From IMG/VR virus record IMGVR_UViG_3300045988_081631: a stretch of DNA of 51,506 bases; one strand, written 5' to 3'. Source of the DNA: a virus. The notes below the pieces were generated by a model. That model made no database searches, was not told the origin of the DNA, and saw only the letters and a list, made by a program, of their open reading frames with translations. The first letter of the stretch is position 1; every line of letters starts with the position of its first letter. Below, piece after piece: positions 25,630-43,027 of this stretch. The translations under genes and the position numbers were made by a program.

Positions 25630-26712
25630 ATGTATCAAGAGACCAAAGCCGACACCCTGCGCATTTTGGCGCACGGACTCCGCGTCAACGGCGCAAAGAC
25701 GCTTGTGAAATGCTGGTACAGCATCGACGGCGACAAAACGCAAATCTATGCGCGCAGCTACTCCGACAAGCTCCCGCGCGACATCCTGCCCGTGCAGAAT
25801 GATACCGACATCATGACAGATTATTTTGACGAGGACAGCGCTACGCTTTCCGCCGAACATCCGCTCTATCCCTTCTTCCGCGCGGCGGCAATCCGGGAAA
25901 AGCTGGCATTTGCCAAAAAGCACCCGGCACATAACGCCACGATTGACAGCGCCCGCGCCGAAGAGGCCGCGCGCCTGTCCGCCGAGCTGGAGACGCTGCC
26001 GAGCGGTCAGCCCACCCCCGCAGACGTTGACCGCGCCCGCGCATACATGGACGCGCAGCGCAGAGCGGCGGCGGAAGCGGAAGAGCGCGCCCGCCGTGAA
26101 GAGTGGGAGCGCAGCGCAGAGGTGGAGCGGCAAAAAGAGCAGGACGCGCGCGAGACCATCGCCGCAGCTGTCGCGGCTTATCCGCTCAAGGACGGTGCGC
26201 CCTATGTCGTCATCAGATGGAGCGAGCACCCCGGCATTGATGAGGGCTTGGCGCTTTCCGTCGCCGCCGCTGATCTGGTGCTATCCCATCTTGACGAGGT
26301 GCAGCACGCGCGCCGCGTGAATGATGGGTTGCGTGGGTATGATAAGACGGCGTTTGTCGTCCACTACACCAAGGGCGGCGAGCCGCTGACCTTTGCCGAC
26401 CGCTACGACATCGGCGACGGTATCGGCGGACTGATCGAGGCTATCCGGCACTATGATAGCAATCTAGCCGAGATGCTGGAGGCATACGGCCCCGCCTTCA
26501 CCGCGCCCGCCGAGCAAGCGAGCACGGAAGCCGCCGGGCGTGTCCTGTCCTTTGCCGTCTGCAAGACCGCCCACGAGTATAAGCAGATGGACGCCGCCGC
26601 CGACAGTATAGCCGGGCTGCTGCTGGACATCCTCGGCGCTTCCGCGCCCCATCTGCCCACGCGACAGGCTACCCCGCAGCCATCCGGGCGCGTGCTTGCC
26701 TTCCACCGCTGA
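25630..26712 (+). CDS. hypothetical 360-aa protein, island gene 5. The C-terminal part resembles accessory domains seen on conjugative-element polyvalent proteins
   Basis: GGGAGG RBS. Central Arg/Glu/Ala coiled coil. C-terminal YVVIRWSEHPGIDEGLAL... The domain assignment is recollection only. Confidence 0.6.
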   Translation: MYQETKADTLRILAHGLRVNGAKTLVKCWYSIDGDKTQIYARSYSDKLPRDILPVQNDTDIMTDYFDEDSATLSAEHPLYPFFRAAAIREKLAFAKKHPAHNATIDSARAEEAARLSAELETLPSGQPTPADVDRARAYMDAQRRAAAEAEERARREEWERSAEVERQKEQDARETIAAAVAAYPLKDGAPYVVIRWSEHPGIDEGLALSVAAADLVLSHLDEVQHARRVNDGLRGYDKTAFVVHYTKGGEPLTFADRYDIGDGIGGLIEAIRHYDSNLAEMLEAYGPAFTAPAEQASTEAAGRVLSFAVCKTAHEYKQMDAAADSIAGLLLDILGASAPHLPTRQATPQPSGRVLAFHR

Positions 26713-34739: not shown

Positions 34740-34945
34740 TCTTTCTTCGCCTCCCACTGCTGCCTTTGAAACGTCCTCATGCAGGTGTACCGGCAAAAAT
34801 ACTTACATTTTCCTTTTTTGTCAGTAATCTTATAGGCATAGATCATCGGATATGCCGTCACAAACTTAGTGCCGCACATGGGGCAAGTTCTGGAGGTTAA
34901 TACTTGATCAAGCGCCCCTCTCGGCATTTTGCTTTTCCTGCTCAT
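34736..34945 (-). CDS. small Zn-ribbon protein
   Basis: CPMCG....CRYTC. Confidence 0.5.
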   Translation of the reverse strand: MSRKSKMPRGALDQVLTSRTCPMCGTKFVTAYPMIYAYKITDKKGKCKYFCRYTCMRTFQRQQWEAKKE

Positions 34946-35724
34946 ATCGGCAGTCTCTCCTGCGTCGCTTTCGGCGCGTACAAATCAAGGAAAAACCGCT
35001 GGCCTTTCCCGGTGATTAGCGGTGTTTTGTTGATCTGGATACCGCTGCTTCTGGAAATCGTACTCTCATGCACCCGCATCAACCCCATATCCATGCTTTT
35101 CTGTGACGGGACGTTCCAGTTTCGGCCTTTTGAGTTTAGCCATTTATCATTTCGTAGCCTTTCAAACAGCCGTCTTTCTCCGATATCTAGCCCCGCCTGA
35201 TTCAGAATTTTGGCCAGCGTCCCGATTGAGATACAGGTTTCCGCTTTCTCCACGGTTTCGGCAAACAGAACCTTCGGCGCGTCTGCTTTGATCTTTTCGT
35301 TCGCCGCTTCGAGCTGCTTGTTCCGCTCGGCAATCTTCCGCTGCGCAACCATCAGCGCGTTTGCCAGCAGCTGGTCGTCGTCCATCGTTTCCTGTCCGGC
35401 GATATACCCGCCCGTCTTGCGGATCTCCGGAATAACCTCGTGGGTAATCCAGCGCTTGAAGGCTTTCGCTTCGGGCTTGCGGCTACCAAGAATCAAAGCG
35501 TAAAGCCCCGGTTCGTTGACGGCATTCACGGGAAGCCCGTTGCTCGCACCCTCGATTGAAACTAGGGTGCGTTCATCCTCATCCAAACGCTTAATAACAT
35601 CGCTGCTGTTCCCCAGTCCCAGCGCCCTGCACACATCCGCCGCCACAAACCACGGTTCACCTTCCAGTGTCACGGCGCGCACCGCGCCGAACTCATCCTT
35701 GCGAAAAATCGTTACATCGTTCAT
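34942..35724 (-). CDS. antirepressor (Bro-N plus KilA-C/ANT domains)
   Basis: FGAVRAVTLEGEPWFVAADVCRALGL (Bro-N); the C-terminus is an ANT-type DNA-binding region. Confidence 0.8.
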   Translation of the reverse strand: MNDVTIFRKDEFGAVRAVTLEGEPWFVAADVCRALGLGNSSDVIKRLDEDERTLVSIEGASNGLPVNAVNEPGLYALILGSRKPEAKAFKRWITHEVIPEIRKTGGYIAGQETMDDDQLLANALMVAQRKIAERNKQLEAANEKIKADAPKVLFAETVEKAETCISIGTLAKILNQAGLDIGERRLFERLRNDKWLNSKGRNWNVPSQKSMDMGLMRVHESTISRSSGIQINKTPLITGKGQRFFLDLYAPKATQERLPI

Positions 35725-35726
35725 GC

Positions 35727-36980
35727 TTAACCTCCTTGCATTTCCGCGAATCGCATCGTTGCGCCGTCAAAATACAGCGTAATCCTTCCGCATCGACCGC
35801 CCCGATTTTTGTCCAGAAACAGCTTCCTTTCCGGGTCGTCCTTGTCGTTCGGCGCATGCAGCAGGAGTACCGCGTCTGCGTCCTGCTCGATGCTGCCGGA
35901 TTCGCGGAGGTCTGACAGTTTCGGCTCGTCGTTTCGCTCGCTCGCGCGGTTGAGCTGTGAAGCGGTCAAAACCGGGATTTTTAGCTCCATCGCAAGCGCC
36001 TTTAGCCCTCTTGTGACAACTCCGACTGCTTCCGCGCGGTTGTTTGTCTTCTGCCCTGCGTCGAGTAGCTGCAAGTAATCAGCCACGATCAAATCAAGCC
36101 CGCCATGTGCCCGCGTCCTCAGCGCCATTCGGCGGATATCCTGCACGGTTCGCGCCCGTTCGCTGATGCAGAACCTCTCTGACGGGATTTCTGCAAAGCT
36201 GTCAGCGACTTTGATGATCTCGTCTTCCGTCAGGTTGTGGCGCTCGATTTTGTCTACCGAGACGCCGCTTTTCTGCGCCACAACACGCCCGACGACCTCG
36301 TCCGCGCCCATCTCGCAAGATACCAACAGGATTCTTCTGCCTGCGTCCAGCGCTCGAACGGCCATATGCAGCAGGAGCGCAGACTTGCCGACGGAAGGCC
36401 GTGCGCCGACAACAATCAGCTTCCCTCCCGCAATCAGCAAGGATTGATCGAGCTTCGGAAACCCTGTCTTTGCGATGGGTTCAACCGCTCCGCTCGTGAG
36501 TCGTGTATAAAAGCCGCAAAGCGCGTCTGTGCCGCTGATAATGTCTCCGTCGTCTGTTTGTCCGCCCAACTCGTTTAGACGCACCACCGCGCCGTTGAGC
36601 AGCTCCGACGTGGATATCTCACCATCGTTCGCGCTCTTGACTGTATCCAGGCACGTCTTGATAAGCGCTTTCCGCATTGCCGCTTCCCGGATGTTCCGTG
36701 CCTGCTGTTCGGCAAGCGCCGTTGTGACGGTTTCCGTGGCGACGACGATAGCCTGTTCAAGGTCGTCGTCAGAAATCACGCCTTCCAGCGTCGGGATATC
36801 GCATGGACGGCCTTGCCTCTCAAGCGCAAGCGCGGCCTCAAAAATTCGGCGGCAGAACGGGATTGTGAACCATTCGGCTTTAAGCCCGGAATCGCTTGCC
36901 TTTGTGTCGCCCTTGATGATTGCGCCGCAGAATTCGCGCTCAGAGATCTCTTTGGTGAGACTTTGGTACGGATCGTCCAT
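35727..36980 (-). CDS. dnaB: replicative DNA helicase (DnaB-like)
   Basis: Walker A GARPSVGKSAL; IVADYLQLL; SQLNR. Confidence 0.85.
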   Translation of the reverse strand: MDDPYQSLTKEISEREFCGAIIKGDTKASDSGLKAEWFTIPFCRRIFEAALALERQGRPCDIPTLEGVISDDDLEQAIVVATETVTTALAEQQARNIREAAMRKALIKTCLDTVKSANDGEISTSELLNGAVVRLNELGGQTDDGDIISGTDALCGFYTRLTSGAVEPIAKTGFPKLDQSLLIAGGKLIVVGARPSVGKSALLLHMAVRALDAGRRILLVSCEMGADEVVGRVVAQKSGVSVDKIERHNLTEDEIIKVADSFAEIPSERFCISERARTVQDIRRMALRTRAHGGLDLIVADYLQLLDAGQKTNNRAEAVGVVTRGLKALAMELKIPVLTASQLNRASERNDEPKLSDLRESGSIEQDADAVLLLHAPNDKDDPERKLFLDKNRGGRCGRITLYFDGATMRFAEMQGG

Positions 36981-37713
36981 AGCTCATTCCTCCCACGCTG
37001 TCAGGCGGCTTTTCCGCCCACGTGTATCCTCGCTCTTTCTCCTTGCGAAGAATGCCCTCGACATACCGCCAACATCGGCTTTTTTCTGTCACTCCTTGAG
37101 TTTTGTTTATGGCTTTCAGCAGATTTTCAGCTCCGTATCCAGCCCTGAGTCTGTCCATCGCGTCAAAGTCGCCCGAAGCACTGACAGGTAAGCCCATGCG
37201 CTTTGCAGCAGCCTCCACGTCTGCCTGTTCTTCCCGCATTCGCCGCGGTTCGTCGTCCGTCACGTCGTCGTAGGGGTTTGGGGTTACGTAACCACCACCA
37301 ATATTCTTTTCTTGTTCTTTTACTTGTTCTTGTTCTTGTATATACGCGTTTTGCTTGACGTTGCTTTCGTCTGCTTCCGGTTGCTTGGCTTTGCTTGGCT
37401 TTGCTTGGCTTTGCTTCAATGTGCTTGCGTTTGCTTCCGTTTGCTTGACGTTGCTTTCGTCTGCTTCCGGTTGCTTGGCGCATCCGCCTTTCTTCCCGCT
37501 TGCTTTCTTTGCTTCCAAGGATTCAGCGCACTGGTCGATTTTGAATTGAAGCGTGTCCCAGACATACCATTCCGGCGCGTTCTCGCCAAACGTCGGCAAC
37601 TCGCCACGGTAGGCATAGGCCATCATGGCCATAAAAAGCCGTCCGCGCTGTGCGTCATCATATCGCTTGAGAAGAACTTCGATGTCTGGGAAGACCTTCA
37701 GATAATCCAGCAT
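36940..37713 (-). CDS. replisome organiser / DnaD-like replication protein with a repetitive linker
   Basis: Lies upstream of the helicase. Linker with a KQ-x8 10-aa periodicity. ATG 37713 after AGGAGAAAGGAG. Confidence 0.6.
   Translation of the reverse strand: MLDYLKVFPDIEVLLKRYDDAQRGRLFMAMMAYAYRGELPTFGENAPEWYVWDTLQFKIDQCAESLEAKKASGKKGGCAKQPEADESNVKQTEANASTLKQSQAKPSKAKQPEADESNVKQNAYIQEQEQVKEQEKNIGGGYVTPNPYDDVTDDEPRRMREEQADVEAAAKRMGLPVSASGDFDAMDRLRAGYGAENLLKAINKTQGVTEKSRCWRYVEGILRKEKERGYTWAEKPPDSVGGMSYGRSVPKSHQRDL
37351..37479. repeat. TTGCTT motifs mostly at 10-bp spacing, including two exact 39-bp copies 90 bp apart; candidate origin iterons inside the replication gene
   Basis: ttgcttgacgttgctttcgtctgcttccggttgcttggc at 37351..37389 and 37441..37479; tandem tttgcttggc units between them. 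Confidence 0.8.
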
Positions 37714-37740
37714 CCTTTTTCTCCTTTCTCCTAAAATAAA

Positions 37741-37890
37741 TGGTGGCAAGCCCCGGAATCGAACCGGGCGACGCGGGCAAGGTGCTACGCGTTAAACCCA
37801 TGAAGCGAATATTGGAAGGGGGAAACCTTGATCCAGGAGGAATTTCGTCTGTCAAGAAGAAGCCCCGCGCCGATACCTGCTATGCTTGCC
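37741..37890 (-). ncRNA. non-canonical tRNA-like element (acceptor stem, T-arm and encoded CCA; the anticodon arm is replaced by an 8-bp helix plus an 86-nt insert)
   Basis: Minus strand GGCAAGC-AUAGCAGGUAUC-GGCGCGGG..86 nt..CCCGCGUC-G-CCCGG-UUCGAUU-CCGGG-GCUUGCC-A-CCA. Confidence 0.5.
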
Positions 37891-37946
37891 ATAAGTGCCG
37901 CCGTTTTGCCCCGGCGGCTAGGCTGTCTGTGAAACGTCTTTTATTT

Positions 37947-38145
37947 GCCGTCTTTCCGGCTGCCAGAAAAAATGGTGTGCGGTCTTTCCCGCCGTCAGAA
38001 TGTGAAAAAACAGTTTTGTCTTTCCGCCGTCTCTCCGGCTGTCAATTTTGTTGATCGTCTTTCCGATCTGTCGATGCTAAAGAACACGTCCCTTCGTCTT
38101 TCCGAAGCGCCAGAAATGAAATGTGCGGCGCCCGTCTTTCCGAGC
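37947..38145 (-). repeat. array of seven mini-hairpins with covarying stems and a conserved loop (GAAAGA on the minus strand)
   Basis: Plus strand gccg/tctttc/cggc, gcgg/tctttc/ccgc, (g/tctttc/c), gccg/tctctc/cggc, gatcg/tctttc/cgatc, cttcg/tctttc/cgaag, gcccg/tctttc/cgagc. Confidence 0.75.
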
Positions 38146-38356
38146 AGCCAGTATGATCATAATTTGCCCTTGCTCCGCCATCCTCCCTTCTGTTGGAGCT
38201 TTCACCGTTTCAAGCAGTTCCTTCGTGCTTGACTTACCCAAACTTCTTCTGCTCGGCGCGCGGCGGTATCGACCCGCCCCTTCTTCTTGGCGCTGCTTGC
38301 CGCCTTGAAGCTGCTCTCCTGAGCTGCGCACCATGCGCAAGGGTTTTAGCCCTTGC

Positions 38357-39022
38357 TTAATCCGGCTCACATTTCAACCCCAGCGTCTTACAAATTTCTT
38401 TCGTCGCCTTGATGGACTTAATGTGGTATCGTTCATCAAATTCTTCCTGCGCCATCGTGTGGCACTCCGTATGATGCACCCTGCAAAGCGGTTCGAGCGG
38501 CATACCCTCGTGGATGATAGTCTTTCGGTTCGCACCCATGCCAATCCGCGTCCAGTGGTGGATATCGGCTTTCTGGCCGCAGATGCAGCACTTTCGGCGC
38601 ATCAGGCAGGAATACATATACCTGTCAACGTCGTCGGCCAGAGAGGCCAGCGGAACGCGTGTCGGGATATCGTTGCGGAGAATGAAGTCAATTAAATAGG
38701 AAATAAATTCTTTGGCAGTTGTCACGTCGCAATCCGACAGGCTGAACAGCTCTCGTTGGAGCTGTTTGAGGTGGTTTGCAACAAAGTCATGCTTCATCAC
38801 GTCCTTGATTTCGCTCTGCTCGTAGCCGTAGAACTCGCCGATTTCCCGCATCAGCGCATAAGCCTTGCGGCGCTGCTCCGGGCTGATTCTTCGCCCGTCT
38901 GGCAAGCCAACCTGTACCTCGTTGTATTGGCGCTTGATGATCTTCTCAAGGTCTCCATACGGCACGAAGACCATCAAGCCGCCGTCAACCACGTCAACGA
39001 TCTTTCCCGGCGCTATTTCCAT
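38357..39022 (-). CDS. HNHc-type phage nuclease
   Basis: CCICGQKADIHHW.....LCRVHHTECH. Confidence 0.65.
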   Translation of the reverse strand: MEIAPGKIVDVVDGGLMVFVPYGDLEKIIKRQYNEVQVGLPDGRRISPEQRRKAYALMREIGEFYGYEQSEIKDVMKHDFVANHLKQLQRELFSLSDCDVTTAKEFISYLIDFILRNDIPTRVPLASLADDVDRYMYSCLMRRKCCICGQKADIHHWTRIGMGANRKTIIHEGMPLEPLCRVHHTECHTMAQEEFDERYHIKSIKATKEICKTLGLKCEPD

Positions 39023-39554
39023 TCGGATTCTCCTTCTGCCAGAGGAAAACGAGCTTCTTGTTCTTGGAGTTTCGGATTGCAAGCCCTACGATATTTCGCT
39101 GTTCATCGTCATAAGCGATTTTCTGCACCTCAAACTTGTCGTAGGTCATCGCCTTGCCGTTTTTGTTTGGCTTGATTTCCACTTTTTCAGCGGGAATCCA
39201 GATAAACGGCGCTGTGTAAAGCTCTCGACCGATGCCCCAGTTGACGCAGGCGCGCTTGAAACTGTCAGATGCAAGCCCCTTCGCGGCTTCCGTGTTGCTC
39301 TCTGTGCCCGTGTCCTCCTTCTCAATCCACGTCTTTTTGTCTGCGTCAAAGATGGAGACAATGCAGTTTGCGTTATCCCTGTCGTGGCGACGCGACCAGT
39401 TGAACGAGCCGACTGTCTCATCAAGGATATCCATATCGCACCGCGCGTTCTTGTAAAGCAGGAGCTGACAGCCCTTTTCGCTGATCTGCGCAACCCGCAC
39501 GTCAATTTCGGACGCTTCCAGCGGTCGGAACATCCGCTTTTTCTTCTCGTCCAT
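38994..39554 (-). CDS. Rad52/Sak-like single-strand annealing protein
   Basis: LLLYKNARCDMDILDETVG...KGLASDSFKRACVNWGIGRELY. Confidence 0.7.
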   Translation of the reverse strand: MDEKKKRMFRPLEASEIDVRVAQISEKGCQLLLYKNARCDMDILDETVGSFNWSRRHDRDNANCIVSIFDADKKTWIEKEDTGTESNTEAAKGLASDSFKRACVNWGIGRELYTAPFIWIPAEKVEIKPNKNGKAMTYDKFEVQKIAYDDEQRNIVGLAIRNSKNKKLVFLWQKENPNGNSAGKDR

Positions 39555-39558
39555 CCTT

Positions 39559-39696
39559 TCACCACCTATCCATCATGTCCCAGAAGGGGTTATCGTCGTC
39601 CTGCTCGGTGTTCCAGCTCGGCTCTTGTCCTGTCAAGCAGGGCGACCACTCGCCATCTGTATACGCCTTGTACAGCGCCAACTGCTCACTTGACAT
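39559..39696 (-). CDS. small acidic hypothetical protein (45 aa)
   Basis: Hand translation MSSEQLALYKAYTDGEWSPCLTGQEPSWNTEQDDDNPFWDMMDRW. Confidence 0.4.
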   Translation of the reverse strand: MSSEQLALYKAYTDGEWSPCLTGQEPSWNTEQDDDNPFWDMMDRW

Positions 39697-40183
39697 AGAT
39701 GCTCACCGTCTGCCGCAGTTCTGCGCCATCGACAGCCTTTCCGGCCTTCAAGGCTTCCTTGATTTTTGTCTTGTCCGGCTCGTACTTGGCCGGAATCTCG
39801 CGCATGTACTCGCTGGTCAGCTTGCTTGCATCGGTGATTTCTGCCGCAGGCGGATTTTTTTTAAAGAAGATATTTACCTTGGCCGTCTCAAACTTTTCGC
39901 CGCCAAGCGACTGGCTCAGATACGCCTTCAGCTTTTCAAGCTGCCCTTCATACACCTTCCGGCGCTCGGAAATGGATTTCTCCTCGTTCTTCATCGCGTC
40001 GATCAAGGCCGTTTGCTTTTTGATGTAAAGCCCAGTGTTCTCGATCTTCTCCTCACGCGCCATTTGCAGCGCATCCAGCGCTTCCGCGCCGATGATCTCG
40101 CCCGTCTCCGGGTTTACCAGCTCATAGCCTTCAAGCAGCGCTTCAATATTCGCGTCGATCTGGTACAGGCTCAATCCGCTCAT
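39686..40183 (-). CDS. Gp157-like phage protein
   Basis: MSGLSLYQIDANIEALLEG... coiled coil; position is before the annealase. Confidence 0.6.
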   Translation of the reverse strand: MSGLSLYQIDANIEALLEGYELVNPETGEIIGAEALDALQMAREEKIENTGLYIKKQTALIDAMKNEEKSISERRKVYEGQLEKLKAYLSQSLGGEKFETAKVNIFFKKNPPAAEITDASKLTSEYMREIPAKYEPDKTKIKEALKAGKAVDGAELRQTVSIYVK

Positions 40184-40325
40184 TGATGATTCTCCTCTCT
40201 TGCGCTCTGATGATCTCTTTCCGGCGGCGCGAAGCAGCTTTGCTTGCTTGCATTGCGGCCCACGCTTCGCGCCCCATCTGCTCGGCGGCTTCCTGCTGCT
40301 CAAGCTCAAACAGCTCACTCCGCAT
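40143..40325 (-). CDS. small hypothetical protein (60 aa)
   Basis: AAGGAG is 7 nt before ATG 40325. Confidence 0.4.
   Translation of the reverse strand: MRSELFELEQQEAAEQMGREAWAAMQASKAASRRRKEIIRAQERRIINERIEPVPDRREY

Positions 40326-41314: not shown

Positions 41315-41318
<4 letters not shown>
41151..41318 (-). CDS. 55-aa two-helix membrane protein
   Basis: Hand translation MKKLFWVGAALTIFAAAVTGLNATCGGSVLNTLTSLIVTLCFGWLSWLLWECEYV; ATGA coupling. Confidence 0.45.
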
Positions 41319-41949
<631 letters not shown>

Positions 41950-41962
<13 letters not shown>

Positions 41963-42504: not shown

Positions 42505-42580
42505 CATGTTTTTGCAAATTTATGTTGACTGTGTTGGAATTATTTTTAGAAACTGAATCTCTAGGAATACAAAAAACATG

Positions 42581-42609
42581 TTGACTGTGTTAGCATGTTG
42601 TGTTATAAT
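42581..42609 (+). promoter_or_regulatory. repressor gene promoter
   Basis: TTGACT-17-TATAAT; the ATG is 26 nt downstream. Confidence 0.8.
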
Positions 42610-42634
42610 GATTGCGTCAAAGAGAGGTGAAAAC

Positions 42635-43027
42635 ATGAAAGACAGGATTAAAGAAATCCGTAATTTATATGGAATGACACAGGCTGAATTTTCCGAAAAG
42701 CTAGGCGTTTCAAGGAATTATACAAGCCTTCTCGAATCCGGCGACCGCGTTCCTTCCGAACAGCTCGTTAAGTCGATTTGCCGTGAGTTTAACATCCGTT
42801 ATGACTGGTTGGTAAACGGCGAAGAACCGATGATGATTCCGCAAGACAAGTATGATGAGCTGATTCAGACGATTCTTCATAATAAGTCGGAGTTCATGCG
42901 GTCGGCAGTCATGACCATCTCCCGCATCCCCGGCGGTTGGGAAGCGCTTGAACAGGTCGTAACGCAGGTCTACGAGGATTGGCAGAAAGAGCTGAAAGCC
43001 CAAAACGAAAAAAAGCCGGACGAATAA
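42635..43027 (+). CDS. cI-like XRE-family repressor
   Basis: IKEIRNLYGMTQAEFSEKLGVSRNYTSLLESG; divergent from the early operon. Confidence 0.8.
   Translation: MKDRIKEIRNLYGMTQAEFSEKLGVSRNYTSLLESGDRVPSEQLVKSICREFNIRYDWLVNGEEPMMIPQDKYDELIQTILHNKSEFMRSAVMTISRIPGGWEALEQVVTQVYEDWQKELKAQNEKKPDE

Follow-up and report, generated by a model that had tools for sequence, protein, structure and literature searches.

A phage hairpin array with an invariant purine loop lies between two tRNA-like folds upstream of a replication-initiator gene

Here we present a non-coding module from the viral record IMGVR_UViG_3300045988_081631, a temperate siphovirus-type phage genome of 51,506 nt (the window, to which all coordinates refer). 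The core of the module is an array of small hairpins that share an invariant purine loop. The array forms part of a structured unit of ~620 nt here and 390-625 nt in relatives, situated in the early operon between a nuclease gene and a replication-initiator gene. The conserved surface of the hairpins is the loop and not the stem, and we are highly confident that what is conserved is an RNA structure in gene sense, which is the minus strand of the window. In 5' to 3' order, the module consists of a hairpin, P1; a tRNA-like fold, TLS-1; a purine-rich middle segment with one hairpin bearing a Shine-Dalgarno (SD)-like loop and one to seven array hairpins; a GC hairpin; and a second tRNA-like fold, TLS-2, so that two tRNA-like folds bracket the array. 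The module is a full match to none of the families with which we compared it and is a new RNA family, combining in a new way the known principles of the sponge small RNA (sRNA) and of punctuation by tRNA mimics. The overall reading that we put forward, with about an even chance of being right, is that an excised gene-sense RNA acts as a multivalent binding or decoy platform.

All seven repeat positions listed in an earlier note, made from the sequence of the window alone, were right on recomputation, and comprise six hairpins and one degenerate copy. As read directly from the sequence, each hairpin has a stem of 4-5 bp and the loop tctttc (in one case tctctc) on the plus strand, which is GAAAGA or GAGAGA in gene sense, closed by a G-C pair. 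From the 5' end of the minus-strand RNA, these are H7, GCUCG-GAAAGA-CGGGC, with one U.G pair (38130..38145; plus strand gcccg-tctttc-cgagc; -8.1 kcal/mol); H6, CUUCG-GAAAGA-CGAAG (38092..38107; plus strand cttcg-tctttc-cgaag; -7.1 kcal/mol); H5, GAUCG-GAAAGA-CGAUC (38053..38068; plus strand gatcg-tctttc-cgatc; -6.9 kcal/mol, z -6.2); H4, GCCG-GAGAGA-CGGC, the copy with the variant loop (38026..38039; plus strand gccg-tctctc-cggc; -7.6 kcal/mol); the degenerate core copy GGAAAGAC, which has no stem of its own (38018..38025; plus strand gtctttcc); H2, GCGG-GAAAGA-CCGC (37979..37992; plus strand gcgg-tctttc-ccgc; -7.6 kcal/mol); and H1, GCCG-GAAAGA-CGGC, at the 3' end of the array (37947..37960; plus strand gccg-tctttc-cggc; -7.7 kcal/mol). 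For the degenerate copy, RNAalifold predicts an alternative pairing with a downstream U-tract (GAAAGAC..UGUUUUUUC), a pairing that shows no variation. Folded in isolation as RNA, the six hairpins fall between -6.9 and -8.1 kcal/mol (z -2.6 to -6.2 against shuffles), so that their stabilities are near-equal although their stems differ.

The array is sharply localized. The core GTCTTTCC occurs six times exactly and once with one mismatch within 37950-38141 (192 nt), and three times exactly in the other ~51 kb. Taking the window itself as the background, both strands together hold seven GARAGA-loop hairpins with a stem of at least 4 bp, of which six are in the array. The sole hairpin of this kind outside it, GCAG-GAGAGA-CUGC (~34951-34968, minus strand), lies at the 3' end of the Ant gene and has the array's closing pair together with the variant loop. 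It is present with the same Ant allele in L003, L004, L005, L014, L015 and L017 (L-numbers are labels of homologous loci) and, as it follows the allele, its conservation is inseparable from coding constraint. A scan of viral contigs for the motif pair CGTCTTTCCG N8-38 GTCTTTCC, the background of which is biased, gave mostly chance occurrences among the matches listed. Spacing is irregular, as the earlier note had described, with cores 11, 28, 32, 36, 38 and 39 nt apart here and 11, 27-39 or 71-78 nt apart across the family. The last class is explained by a ~37-nt insertion, carrying a different hairpin (GCUCAAA-AGG-UUUGGGC), between the GAAAGA hairpins of the two-copy arrays of L025, L030, L156, L157 and L162.

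To place the array in a comparative context, homologous loci were collected from 33 viral contigs through the initiator, from five more through a TLS-2 pattern and from ~28 metagenome contigs through a TLS-1 pattern, yielding 48 distinct full-length elements of 393-625 nt as extracted. The earlier note had made its reading depend on conservation and covariation of the hairpins at such loci, and both are present. The array is retained ahead of the initiator gene in about 60 related contigs of viral or human-gut origin. Aligning 33 distinct hairpin sequences to a 5-bp stem model, with 500 column shuffles and slid versions of the model as controls, we found 86.1% of stem cells paired versus 63.4% in the shuffles, with a covariation score of 0.58 versus 0.20 that none of the 500 shuffles reached; cells changed on both sides numbered 40, versus 15 expected, and the slid controls were 16-47% paired. 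The four outer pairs vary and the 8-nt core GGARAGAC is fixed in 33/33 distinct hairpins, bar one A/G loop position. Covariation is seen among paralogous copies, as between H1 and H2, where the pair beside the closing G-C is flipped from C-G to G-C, and also between orthologues. Thus H6 is CUUCG/CGAAG in most loci and CUUUG/CAAAG in L008, L016 and L309 (C-G to U-A), and a hairpin at the H1 position occurs in 48/48 full-length homologues, its helix 98.9% paired and changed from C-G to G-C in six sequences. Self-complementarity kept in flanks that vary speaks against a duplex protein site, which needs none. Additionally, L005, L010, L172 and L221 each have a singleton hybrid hairpin with an unpaired stem, which points to recent unequal recombination between the conserved loops.

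The earlier note had also proposed that the functional form is the minus strand, and this is borne out by two lines of evidence. Single changes give G.U pairs in gene sense: the 3' strand of H7 is CGAGC (U-A) or CGGGC (U.G) in orthologues, H4 is GCUG in L011 and L012, giving a U.G pair, and H1 and H6 have the variants GUCG and CGAGG. Accordingly, the single C.A mismatch seen on the plus strand (38130-38145) is a U.G pair on the minus strand, as the note had said. G.U cells outnumber A.C cells by 9 to 1 in the true stems of the array and by 100 to 43 in all helices of the element, where 24 of the 43 A.C are at one conserved position. Independently, the flanking folds settle the orientation, since a canonical T loop (GGUUCGAUUCC), the acceptor polarity and the NCCA ends are readable only on the minus strand.

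The conserved module starts, at its 5' edge, with P1 (GCAAGGG-CUAAAA-CCCUUGC, 38337..38356, minus strand like all the module parts that follow), directly after the stop codon of the nuclease gene. Its position is kept in all homologues irrespective of the upstream gene, and its stem covaries: two pairs have CG or GC in place of AU, and the variant stems are GCCGGGG/CCCGGC, GCAGGGG/CCCUGC and GCGGGA/UCCCGC. It is followed by TLS-1, a tRNA-like cloverleaf of 79 nt (38254..38332), which the earlier note had overlooked within its own interval. The TLS-1 acceptor is GGUGCGC/GCGCGCC, replaced by GGCGGUC/GACCGCC in one sequence type, and the D arm is GCUC-AGGA-GAGC. The anticodon-like arm of 28 nt (two 4-bp helices separated by an internal loop and capped by an 8-nt loop with ..AGCRG at its end) exists in three differing but isostructural versions, the upper pairs changing from GC to AU or CG. 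The T arm, GGCGG-GUCGAUA-CCGCC, has a loop that begins with G, not U, and a C-G to U-A change in its stem; the discriminator is G and CCA is not encoded. Overall, 96.5% of TLS-1 cells are paired versus 91.1% when shuffled, and the covariation score is 0.204 versus 0.101 (0/500 shuffles as high).

The middle segment is 364 nt long and 61% purine. Between TLS-1 and the array it contains a weakly supported small hairpin, AAGCA-CGAAGGAAC-UGCUU (38212..38230), whose AAGC/GCUU pairing is retained in a second sequence type, and the hairpin GCUCC-AACAGAAGGGAGGAUGGC-GGAGC with its SD-like purine loop (38172..38199). The latter has the stem GCCC/GGGC and loop ACAGAAAGGAGGACACA in a second type, and the stem GCGCCG/CGGCGC and loop GAGAGAGAGG or AAGAGAAAGG in a third; the loops are purine-rich throughout (AAGGGAGGAU, AAAGGAGGAC or GAGAGAGAGG). 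These stem swaps were read by eye, as the columns do not align, and were hence left out of the formal count. Between the array and TLS-2 stands the 7-bp GC hairpin GCCGCCG-GGGCAAAA-CGGCGGC (37897..37918; -16.7 kcal/mol), which the note had placed there as a separator; it is 100% paired in 47 sequences, with double-sided changes at 3/7 pairs.

TLS-2 (37741..37890) is a tRNA-like element of 150 nt whose 3' end is ACCA. Two pairs of its acceptor, GGCAAGC/GCUUGCC, co-change to give GGCAGAC/GUCUGCC in six sequences. A mini D arm of 3 bp with a GG loop shows a G-C to A-U change in 18 sequences, and an 8-9 bp stem with four doubly changed pairs (CGCGCGGG/CCCGCGCG, CAGCUGGG/CCCAGCUG) replaces the anticodon stem. 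The T arm, CCCGG-UUCGAUU-CCGGG, is canonical, with the variants CCCUG...CAGGG and CUCGG...CCGAG (G-C to U-A and C-G to U-A). In total, TLS-2 is 98% paired versus 93.5% when shuffled, with 13 doubly changed pairs versus 5.5 expected (0/500). Inside it lies a pyrimidine-rich insert (37778..37863 here; 14-99 nt across the family) that is hypervariable in sequence and conserved in composition: 41/41 distinct inserts are 60-71% pyrimidine, 30/41 contain CCUCC, and C/U tracts run to 7-23 nt. In L295 and L308, TLS-2 is a minimal version of 73 nt, the L295 insert being reduced to the loop CACAAUCCUCCCUG.

Both folds thus present a 7-bp acceptor on a 5-bp T stem with a T loop of the GTTCRANYC type, giving 12-bp acceptor/T stacks, and neither has the 5-bp anticodon stem with 7-nt loop and normal D arm of a tRNA. 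In both, the acceptor is preceded almost always by U and rarely by C (CAU|GG), and NCCA is encoded by about half of the TLS-2 copies. In neither the window nor seven loci did ARAGORN call a gene. The 5' part of TLS-2 (37853-37877) and the T-arm region of TLS-1 (38265-38289) together form an inverted repeat of 25 nt that is 80% complementary. L002 and L300 have a matching G-C there (CGAUGCC with GGCAUCG) and most sequences have A.C; the variable base is already accounted for by the D-arm pair. An H-type pseudoknot between an upstream U-tract and the array loop was ruled out by topology, as the loop abuts both stem strands.

Several known identities were considered for TLS-2 and rejected. Genuine tmRNA has a tag reading frame with a resume codon, pseudoknots and a G3.U70 pair. 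TLS-2 resembles its tRNA-like domain in the acceptor, the canonical T arm, the reduced D region with GG and the long insert-bearing helix at the place of the anticodon stem. Unlike tmRNA, however, its third acceptor pair is C-G instead of G3.U70, the insert is hypervariable with no conserved tag frame, the whole element measures only 73-150 nt, and neither ARAGORN nor Rfam returned a tmRNA match. A selenocysteine tRNA is likewise not supported, with 14 bits for the Rfam tRNA-Sec model versus a threshold of 47. The T arm and CCA also raised the possibility of an attP site containing a tRNA 3' fragment; this was rejected, since the fold is closed 150 nt upstream by a 5' acceptor strand that covaries, and the integrase gene is 8 kb away.

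With these comparative data, the ~620-nt structured unit including a tRNA-like module that the earlier note had outlined stands; rather than the leader that the note had described, the unit is probably a processed internal segment of a polycistronic transcript. The spacer had also been called free of open reading frames (ORFs). It is indeed empty in an independent gene call (an ENA contig with an identical initiator), although mechanical ORFs exist. These overlapping ORFs look non-coding, as had been noted, with the repeats falling in different frames, and the only AUG after an SD-like sequence in the spacer is missing from the other sequence types.

In all homologues the element begins within a few bases of the upstream stop codon, whether the upstream gene is HNH, SSB or another, and ends ~20-30 nt before the initiator start codon, abutting the initiator ribosome-binding site (RBS). 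Strict GGARAGAC cores number 1, 2, 3, 5, 6 or 7 per element among the 48, and the 5' domain comes in three interchangeable types. Some of the module-bearing metagenome contigs are labelled human gut metagenome. The distribution is narrow. Wider relatives of the initiator in viral contigs have neither the module nor an analogous array with another loop, and the initiators retrieved by a profile search of a genome collection were all distant (25-41% identity; Ca. Limiplasma, Anaeromicropila and other Clostridia metagenome-assembled genomes, prophages included) and without the module. The TLS-2 pattern had no match in the same collection. BLAST against 50,697 phage records gave no match for the spacer in distant mode or for 24.5 kb of the window in near mode. 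Given this patchy presence among initiator relatives, the element is optional and belongs to a single phage clade. One spacer of ~170 nt, GC-rich and lying between an HNH-type gene and a distant initiator homologue (L178, ~1530-1700 of the Ca. Limiplasma merdipullorum contig DVHQ01000083.1), holds GGCGGCUGAGCUGAAGG...GAAGGGCGGGAAUGGGACCCGCCC with a faint likeness to the TLS-1 region and, from its sequence, could be a distant relative of the 5' domain alone.

The early operon runs leftward on the minus strand, with Gp157/Gam-like (39686-40318), Erf/Rad52-type annealing protein (38994-39554) and HNHc_6 nuclease (38357-39082) genes. A 643-nt spacer holding the module follows, and then the DUF6291/replication-initiator-like gene (AUG at 37713, end 36940), DnaB (35727-36980) and Ant (34942-35724). 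The initiator RBS AGGAGAAAGGAG with its AUG (37711..37732, minus strand; AUG 37713) starts ~27 nt past the 3' end of TLS-2. A perfect sigma-70 promoter, TTGACA-17-TATAAT (42504-42476, minus strand), drives the operon and is divergent from an XRE/CI-like repressor gene. Apart from one weak match (41041-41027, minus strand), no terminator-like site was found on the minus strand between this promoter and the module, and none was found downstream of the module on that strand. Co-transcription of the module with the early operon is thus plausible.

The earlier note had known of no described family with this layout, and our searches agree. At gathering score, Rfam 15 has nothing in the region, its one match in the window being a type II hammerhead elsewhere, and at E<=10 there are only chance-level matches, RAGATH-36 (18 bits versus a threshold of 70) and the tRNA-Sec match given above; the divergent homologue L295 likewise gave chance-level matches only. 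Models for ROOL, GOLLD, OLE, raiA and HEARO had no match in the region even at E<=10. We found no description of the module in the literature, where an unnamed listing is possible in a catalogue of candidate structured viral RNAs (10,006 candidates; 8,495 from IMG/VR v3; PMC10690425), and no bacterial or phage case of two tRNA mimics bracketing a hairpin array.

The nearest functional parallels are the sponges CsrB, RsmY and RsmZ, which share with the array several short hairpins with the same purine-rich loop, a varying copy number and free stems; the 11-39 nt between sites in the module is within reach of a dimeric binder. The motif bound by CsrA is ANGGAN with the GGA unpaired. By contrast, the module loop is GARAGA, the only GGA uses the paired closing G, and the whole 8-nt core is invariant as against three bases. 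There are 12 GGA in the 364-nt middle segment, those of the repeats starting at the closing-pair G, and only the SD-like loop (AAGGGAGGA) fits the CsrA motif. Also unlike these sponges, the module lacks a promoter or terminator of its own, has tRNA-like flanks and is encoded by a Clostridia-type gut phage. Lambda boxB, bound by N and preceded by boxA, has a GA-rich loop, GAAAA or GAAGA. The array resembles lambdoid boxB in its 4-5 bp stems, its GA-rich purine loop, its place in an early transcript ahead of replication genes and its loop-centred conservation, as it is the boxB loop that is recognised and not the stem. It differs in having a hexaloop instead of a pentaloop and 1-7 copies instead of one per nut site. 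A boxA-like sequence (CGCUCUUA-like) was found in 0/48 elements, no N-like arginine-rich protein was seen by eye among the early ORFs, and there is no downstream terminator to override.

ToxI consists of near-identical tandem repeats that form pseudoknots, followed by a terminator and a toxin gene, and phage PhiTE carries a pseudo-ToxI decoy. The parallel lies in phage-borne RNA units of ~30-40 nt whose number is altered by recombination, and in the precedent of a decoy by mimicry. In the array, however, the units are diverged and irregularly spaced, and what follows is not a toxin gene of a type III toxin-antitoxin system but the DUF6291 initiator and DnaB. CRISPR repeats are at least ~24 nt long and nearly identical, with unique spacers of similar length; an array or solitary units of this type were rejected, since here no more than 8 nt are invariant, the stems vary, and the spacers measure 11-25 nt and are repeated in part. 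For the flanking folds, the closest precedents are the TMERs of MHV68, MALAT1/mascRNA and mitochondrial tRNA punctuation, in which tRNA-like folds let RNase P and RNase Z set the ends of non-coding RNAs; in a TMER, hairpins accompany the tRNA-like fold. These too are non-decoding tRNA mimics beside a non-coding RNA, but the systems are those of eukaryotes or their viruses, and processing of the phage module is putative.

What could such a module do? RNase P recognises the stack of acceptor and T stem and prefers U at position -1, and RNase Z cuts CCA-less precursors after the discriminator. The acceptor/T stacks, the U at -1 and the CCA-less TLS-1 suggest that host enzymes probably cut at both mimics. 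On this knowledge of tRNA processing, we give excision at the mimics roughly equal chances of being right or wrong: host RNase P would cut 5' of each fold, and RNase Z or exonucleases would act at the 3' ends. Such cuts would part the recombination-gene mRNA from the replication-gene mRNA, uncoupling both, and would release a purine-rich hairpin-array RNA with defined ends, ~350 nt here and ~190 nt in two-copy variants (range ~190-360). A loop that does not change, carried in variable number on stems that drift at matched stability, is the mark of a platform for multivalent recognition. Copy-number variation, loop recombination and equalised stabilities indicate a modular, multivalent design rather than a fixed fold, and the same design logic is found in engineered MS2/PP7 arrays with diversified stems and in the CsrB and RsmZ sponges.

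We therefore propose, tentatively and at somewhat less than even odds, that the array has a sponge or decoy action, in which the number of copies would determine its dose for a loop-specific ligand. An RNA-binding protein or an RNase would be the likeliest ligand; a C/U-rich RNA, for instance the insert of TLS-2 or the 3' tail of 16S (CUUUC), would be less likely. Candidates include a distal-face Hfq-type binder of A-N/A-G repeats, in view of the loop sequence A-R-A-G-A-C; an RNase or abortive-infection toxin that would be offered a mimic of its substrate, for which pseudo-ToxI is the precedent; and an arginine-rich antiterminator-like protein, as in boxB. A more specific version, which we regard as doubtful, is a tRNA-punctuated decoy RNA that titrates a host RNA-binding regulator or an abortive-infection ribonuclease when the replication genes are expressed. 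Candidate targets are an Hfq-type protein that binds (AN)3/(AG)n purine repeats and an RNase with this loop in its natural target, and the copy number of the decoy would evolve by recombination in an arms race.

Several findings weigh against an excised decoy platform. Neither tRNA-like fold scores as a tRNA (no ARAGORN calls, and Rfam tRNA models below reporting), so that recognition by processing enzymes is not guaranteed. Unlike classical sponge sRNAs, the module has no promoter or terminator of its own that we could find. The covariation of the array is largely between paralogous copies, and mostly close relatives were sampled, so there are few independent compensatory events at orthologous hairpins. 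The module is missing from the close initiator relatives L032/L188, L184 and L185 and is thus dispensable for replication. Furthermore, an alternative long-range helix predicted by RNAalifold would use up H7 and H1, and U-tracts after several hairpins are complementary to the loop, making a switching cis-regulator possible.

The last two points lead to a reading in which the module controls the initiator in cis: the C/U-rich insert of TLS-2, ~100 nt upstream of the initiator SD, would mask that SD, and the purine loops, both GARAGA and SD-like, would compete for the C/U tract or recruit 30S subunits, thereby controlling when or how strongly the initiator is translated. The invariable position of the module against the initiator RBS, the uniform pyrimidine bias of the insert with its frequent CCUCC, the purine-rich middle with its SD-like loops, the loop-complementary U-tracts and the predicted alternative helix all fit. 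We nevertheless consider it unlikely, as complementarity between purine-rich and pyrimidine-rich segments is near-automatic and shows no specific covariation, one to seven copies are odd for a tuned switch, a well-formed and probably cleaved tRNA-like fold stands between array and RBS, and initiators of the same type function without the module (L032). A plainer proposal dispenses with any ligand and sees REP-like mRNA punctuation only, the folds being relics or mimics of tRNA genes that serve as processing sites and the hairpins shielding the upstream 3' end. Its position between two gene modules, stable hairpins without U-tracts, the GC hairpin directly 5' of the putative RNase P site and the dispensability of the module would suit this. 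An exonuclease block, however, needs stable stems, and here it is the stems that drift while GGARAGAC stays fixed; a single hairpin of 16.7 kcal/mol would also be enough for protection. We judge this account improbable. Still fainter is the case for a self-assembling ornate RNA, with purine loops making A-minor or kissing contacts within or between molecules, to which we assign only a very slight probability. Phages or prophages encode ROOL and GOLLD, often in the neighbourhood of tRNA islands (PMC12286853), and the module resembles them as a large, covarying, phage-encoded RNA with tRNA-like elements; the 25-nt complementarity between the TLS-1 and TLS-2 regions points the same way. Yet the fold of ROOL and GOLLD is fixed, contains multiple pseudoknots and assembles into cages (PMC12286853), and a modular element with one to seven hairpins and three interchangeable 5'-domain types is hard to square with a fixed quaternary architecture. 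In addition, the long-range pairing has A.C mismatches in most sequences, and none of the large-RNA models matched.

The remaining alternative acts at the level of DNA, with the repeats as duplex iterons or accessory sites to which the initiator or another DNA-binding protein would bind, or as hairpins extruded on single-stranded DNA (ssDNA) at an origin or priming site. The repeats are direct, share one orientation and lie immediately upstream of initiator and helicase genes, and in this they recall theta-type iterons such as those of the lambda ori, the spacers are A/T-rich, and DNA hairpins also tolerate G.T. The earlier note had listed an ssDNA or ori element as an option, and this is weakened by an iteron-like array within the initiator ORF (36940-37713), outside the RNA module: 13 consecutive 10-bp units nTTGCTTnnn (37349-37479), beside an AT-rich stretch (37300-37345). 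The units encode the 10-residue repeats KQxEAxxSxx of a linker. In lambda, the ori iterons lie within gene O, and 37300-37480 is probably the phage origin in the same style, a better candidate than the hairpin array. The 10-bp AAGCA periodicity recurs in L024, whose initiator is 63% identical, whereas L181, with the other N-terminal variant of the initiator, has a different in-gene repeat of ~10-11 bp, CAAAYCGRAA. Both variants are DUF6291 and very divergent, their BLASTP similarity not being significant (E 0.14), and the GGARAGAC core is identical with both. Since it is the in-gene repeats, and not the hairpin core, that vary with the putative DNA-binding domain, recognition of the array by the initiator as iterons is unlikely. 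The array also lacks helical phasing, and its flanks vary while keeping a complementarity that a duplex site does not need. Finally, the RNA-type tRNA-like folds on either side argue for RNA over ssDNA hairpins, and initiators of the same type occur without the module. We consider a DNA-level role highly improbable.

Some further features of the phage genome deserve mention. Structural genes include those for terminase, an SPP1-type portal, major capsid protein E and a tape-measure-sized gene, and the integrase gene is at 45735-47015. The XRE/CI-like repressor gene (42578-43027, plus strand) faces the early promoter, in what is likely the lysis-lysogeny switch region. In the early operon, an ORF of 215 aa (41315-41962, minus strand) matches nothing in Pfam or PHROG and has a run of low complexity at its N terminus (GSGSGSGSGYGSGSGSGSGYGLGYGLGYGLGYGSGSG). 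Directly upstream of a plus-strand ORF with an LPD25 domain (25630-26712) is a type II hammerhead ribozyme (Rfam RF02276; 25520-25593, plus strand; 50.5 bits versus a gathering score of 37, E 1.6e-07), which lies in an island of ~60% G+C (~23-27 kb) versus ~45-55% for most of the phage.

The significance of the module is tempered by its restriction to one clade of human-gut phages. For annotation, it carries the caution that direct repeats beside a replication initiator need not be iterons. The function of structured phage RNAs such as ROOL and GOLLD is an open problem, and the module offers a compact and experimentally tractable example with a clear anatomy: a loop motif of 8 invariant nt on stems that drift freely, variants in nature with 1, 2, 3, 5, 6 or 7 copies, and two tRNA mimics, backed by covariation, that predict exact processing sites. 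It raises the questions of whether phages use host tRNA-processing enzymes to make regulatory RNAs from mRNAs, which host or phage factor reads the GARAGA loop, and whether loop dosage plays a part in replication timing or defence evasion of abundant human-gut Clostridia-type phages. If the decoy reading is true, the module would represent a new class of RNAs that phages direct against their hosts, and would be the first case in bacteria of non-coding RNA biogenesis defined by tRNA mimics.

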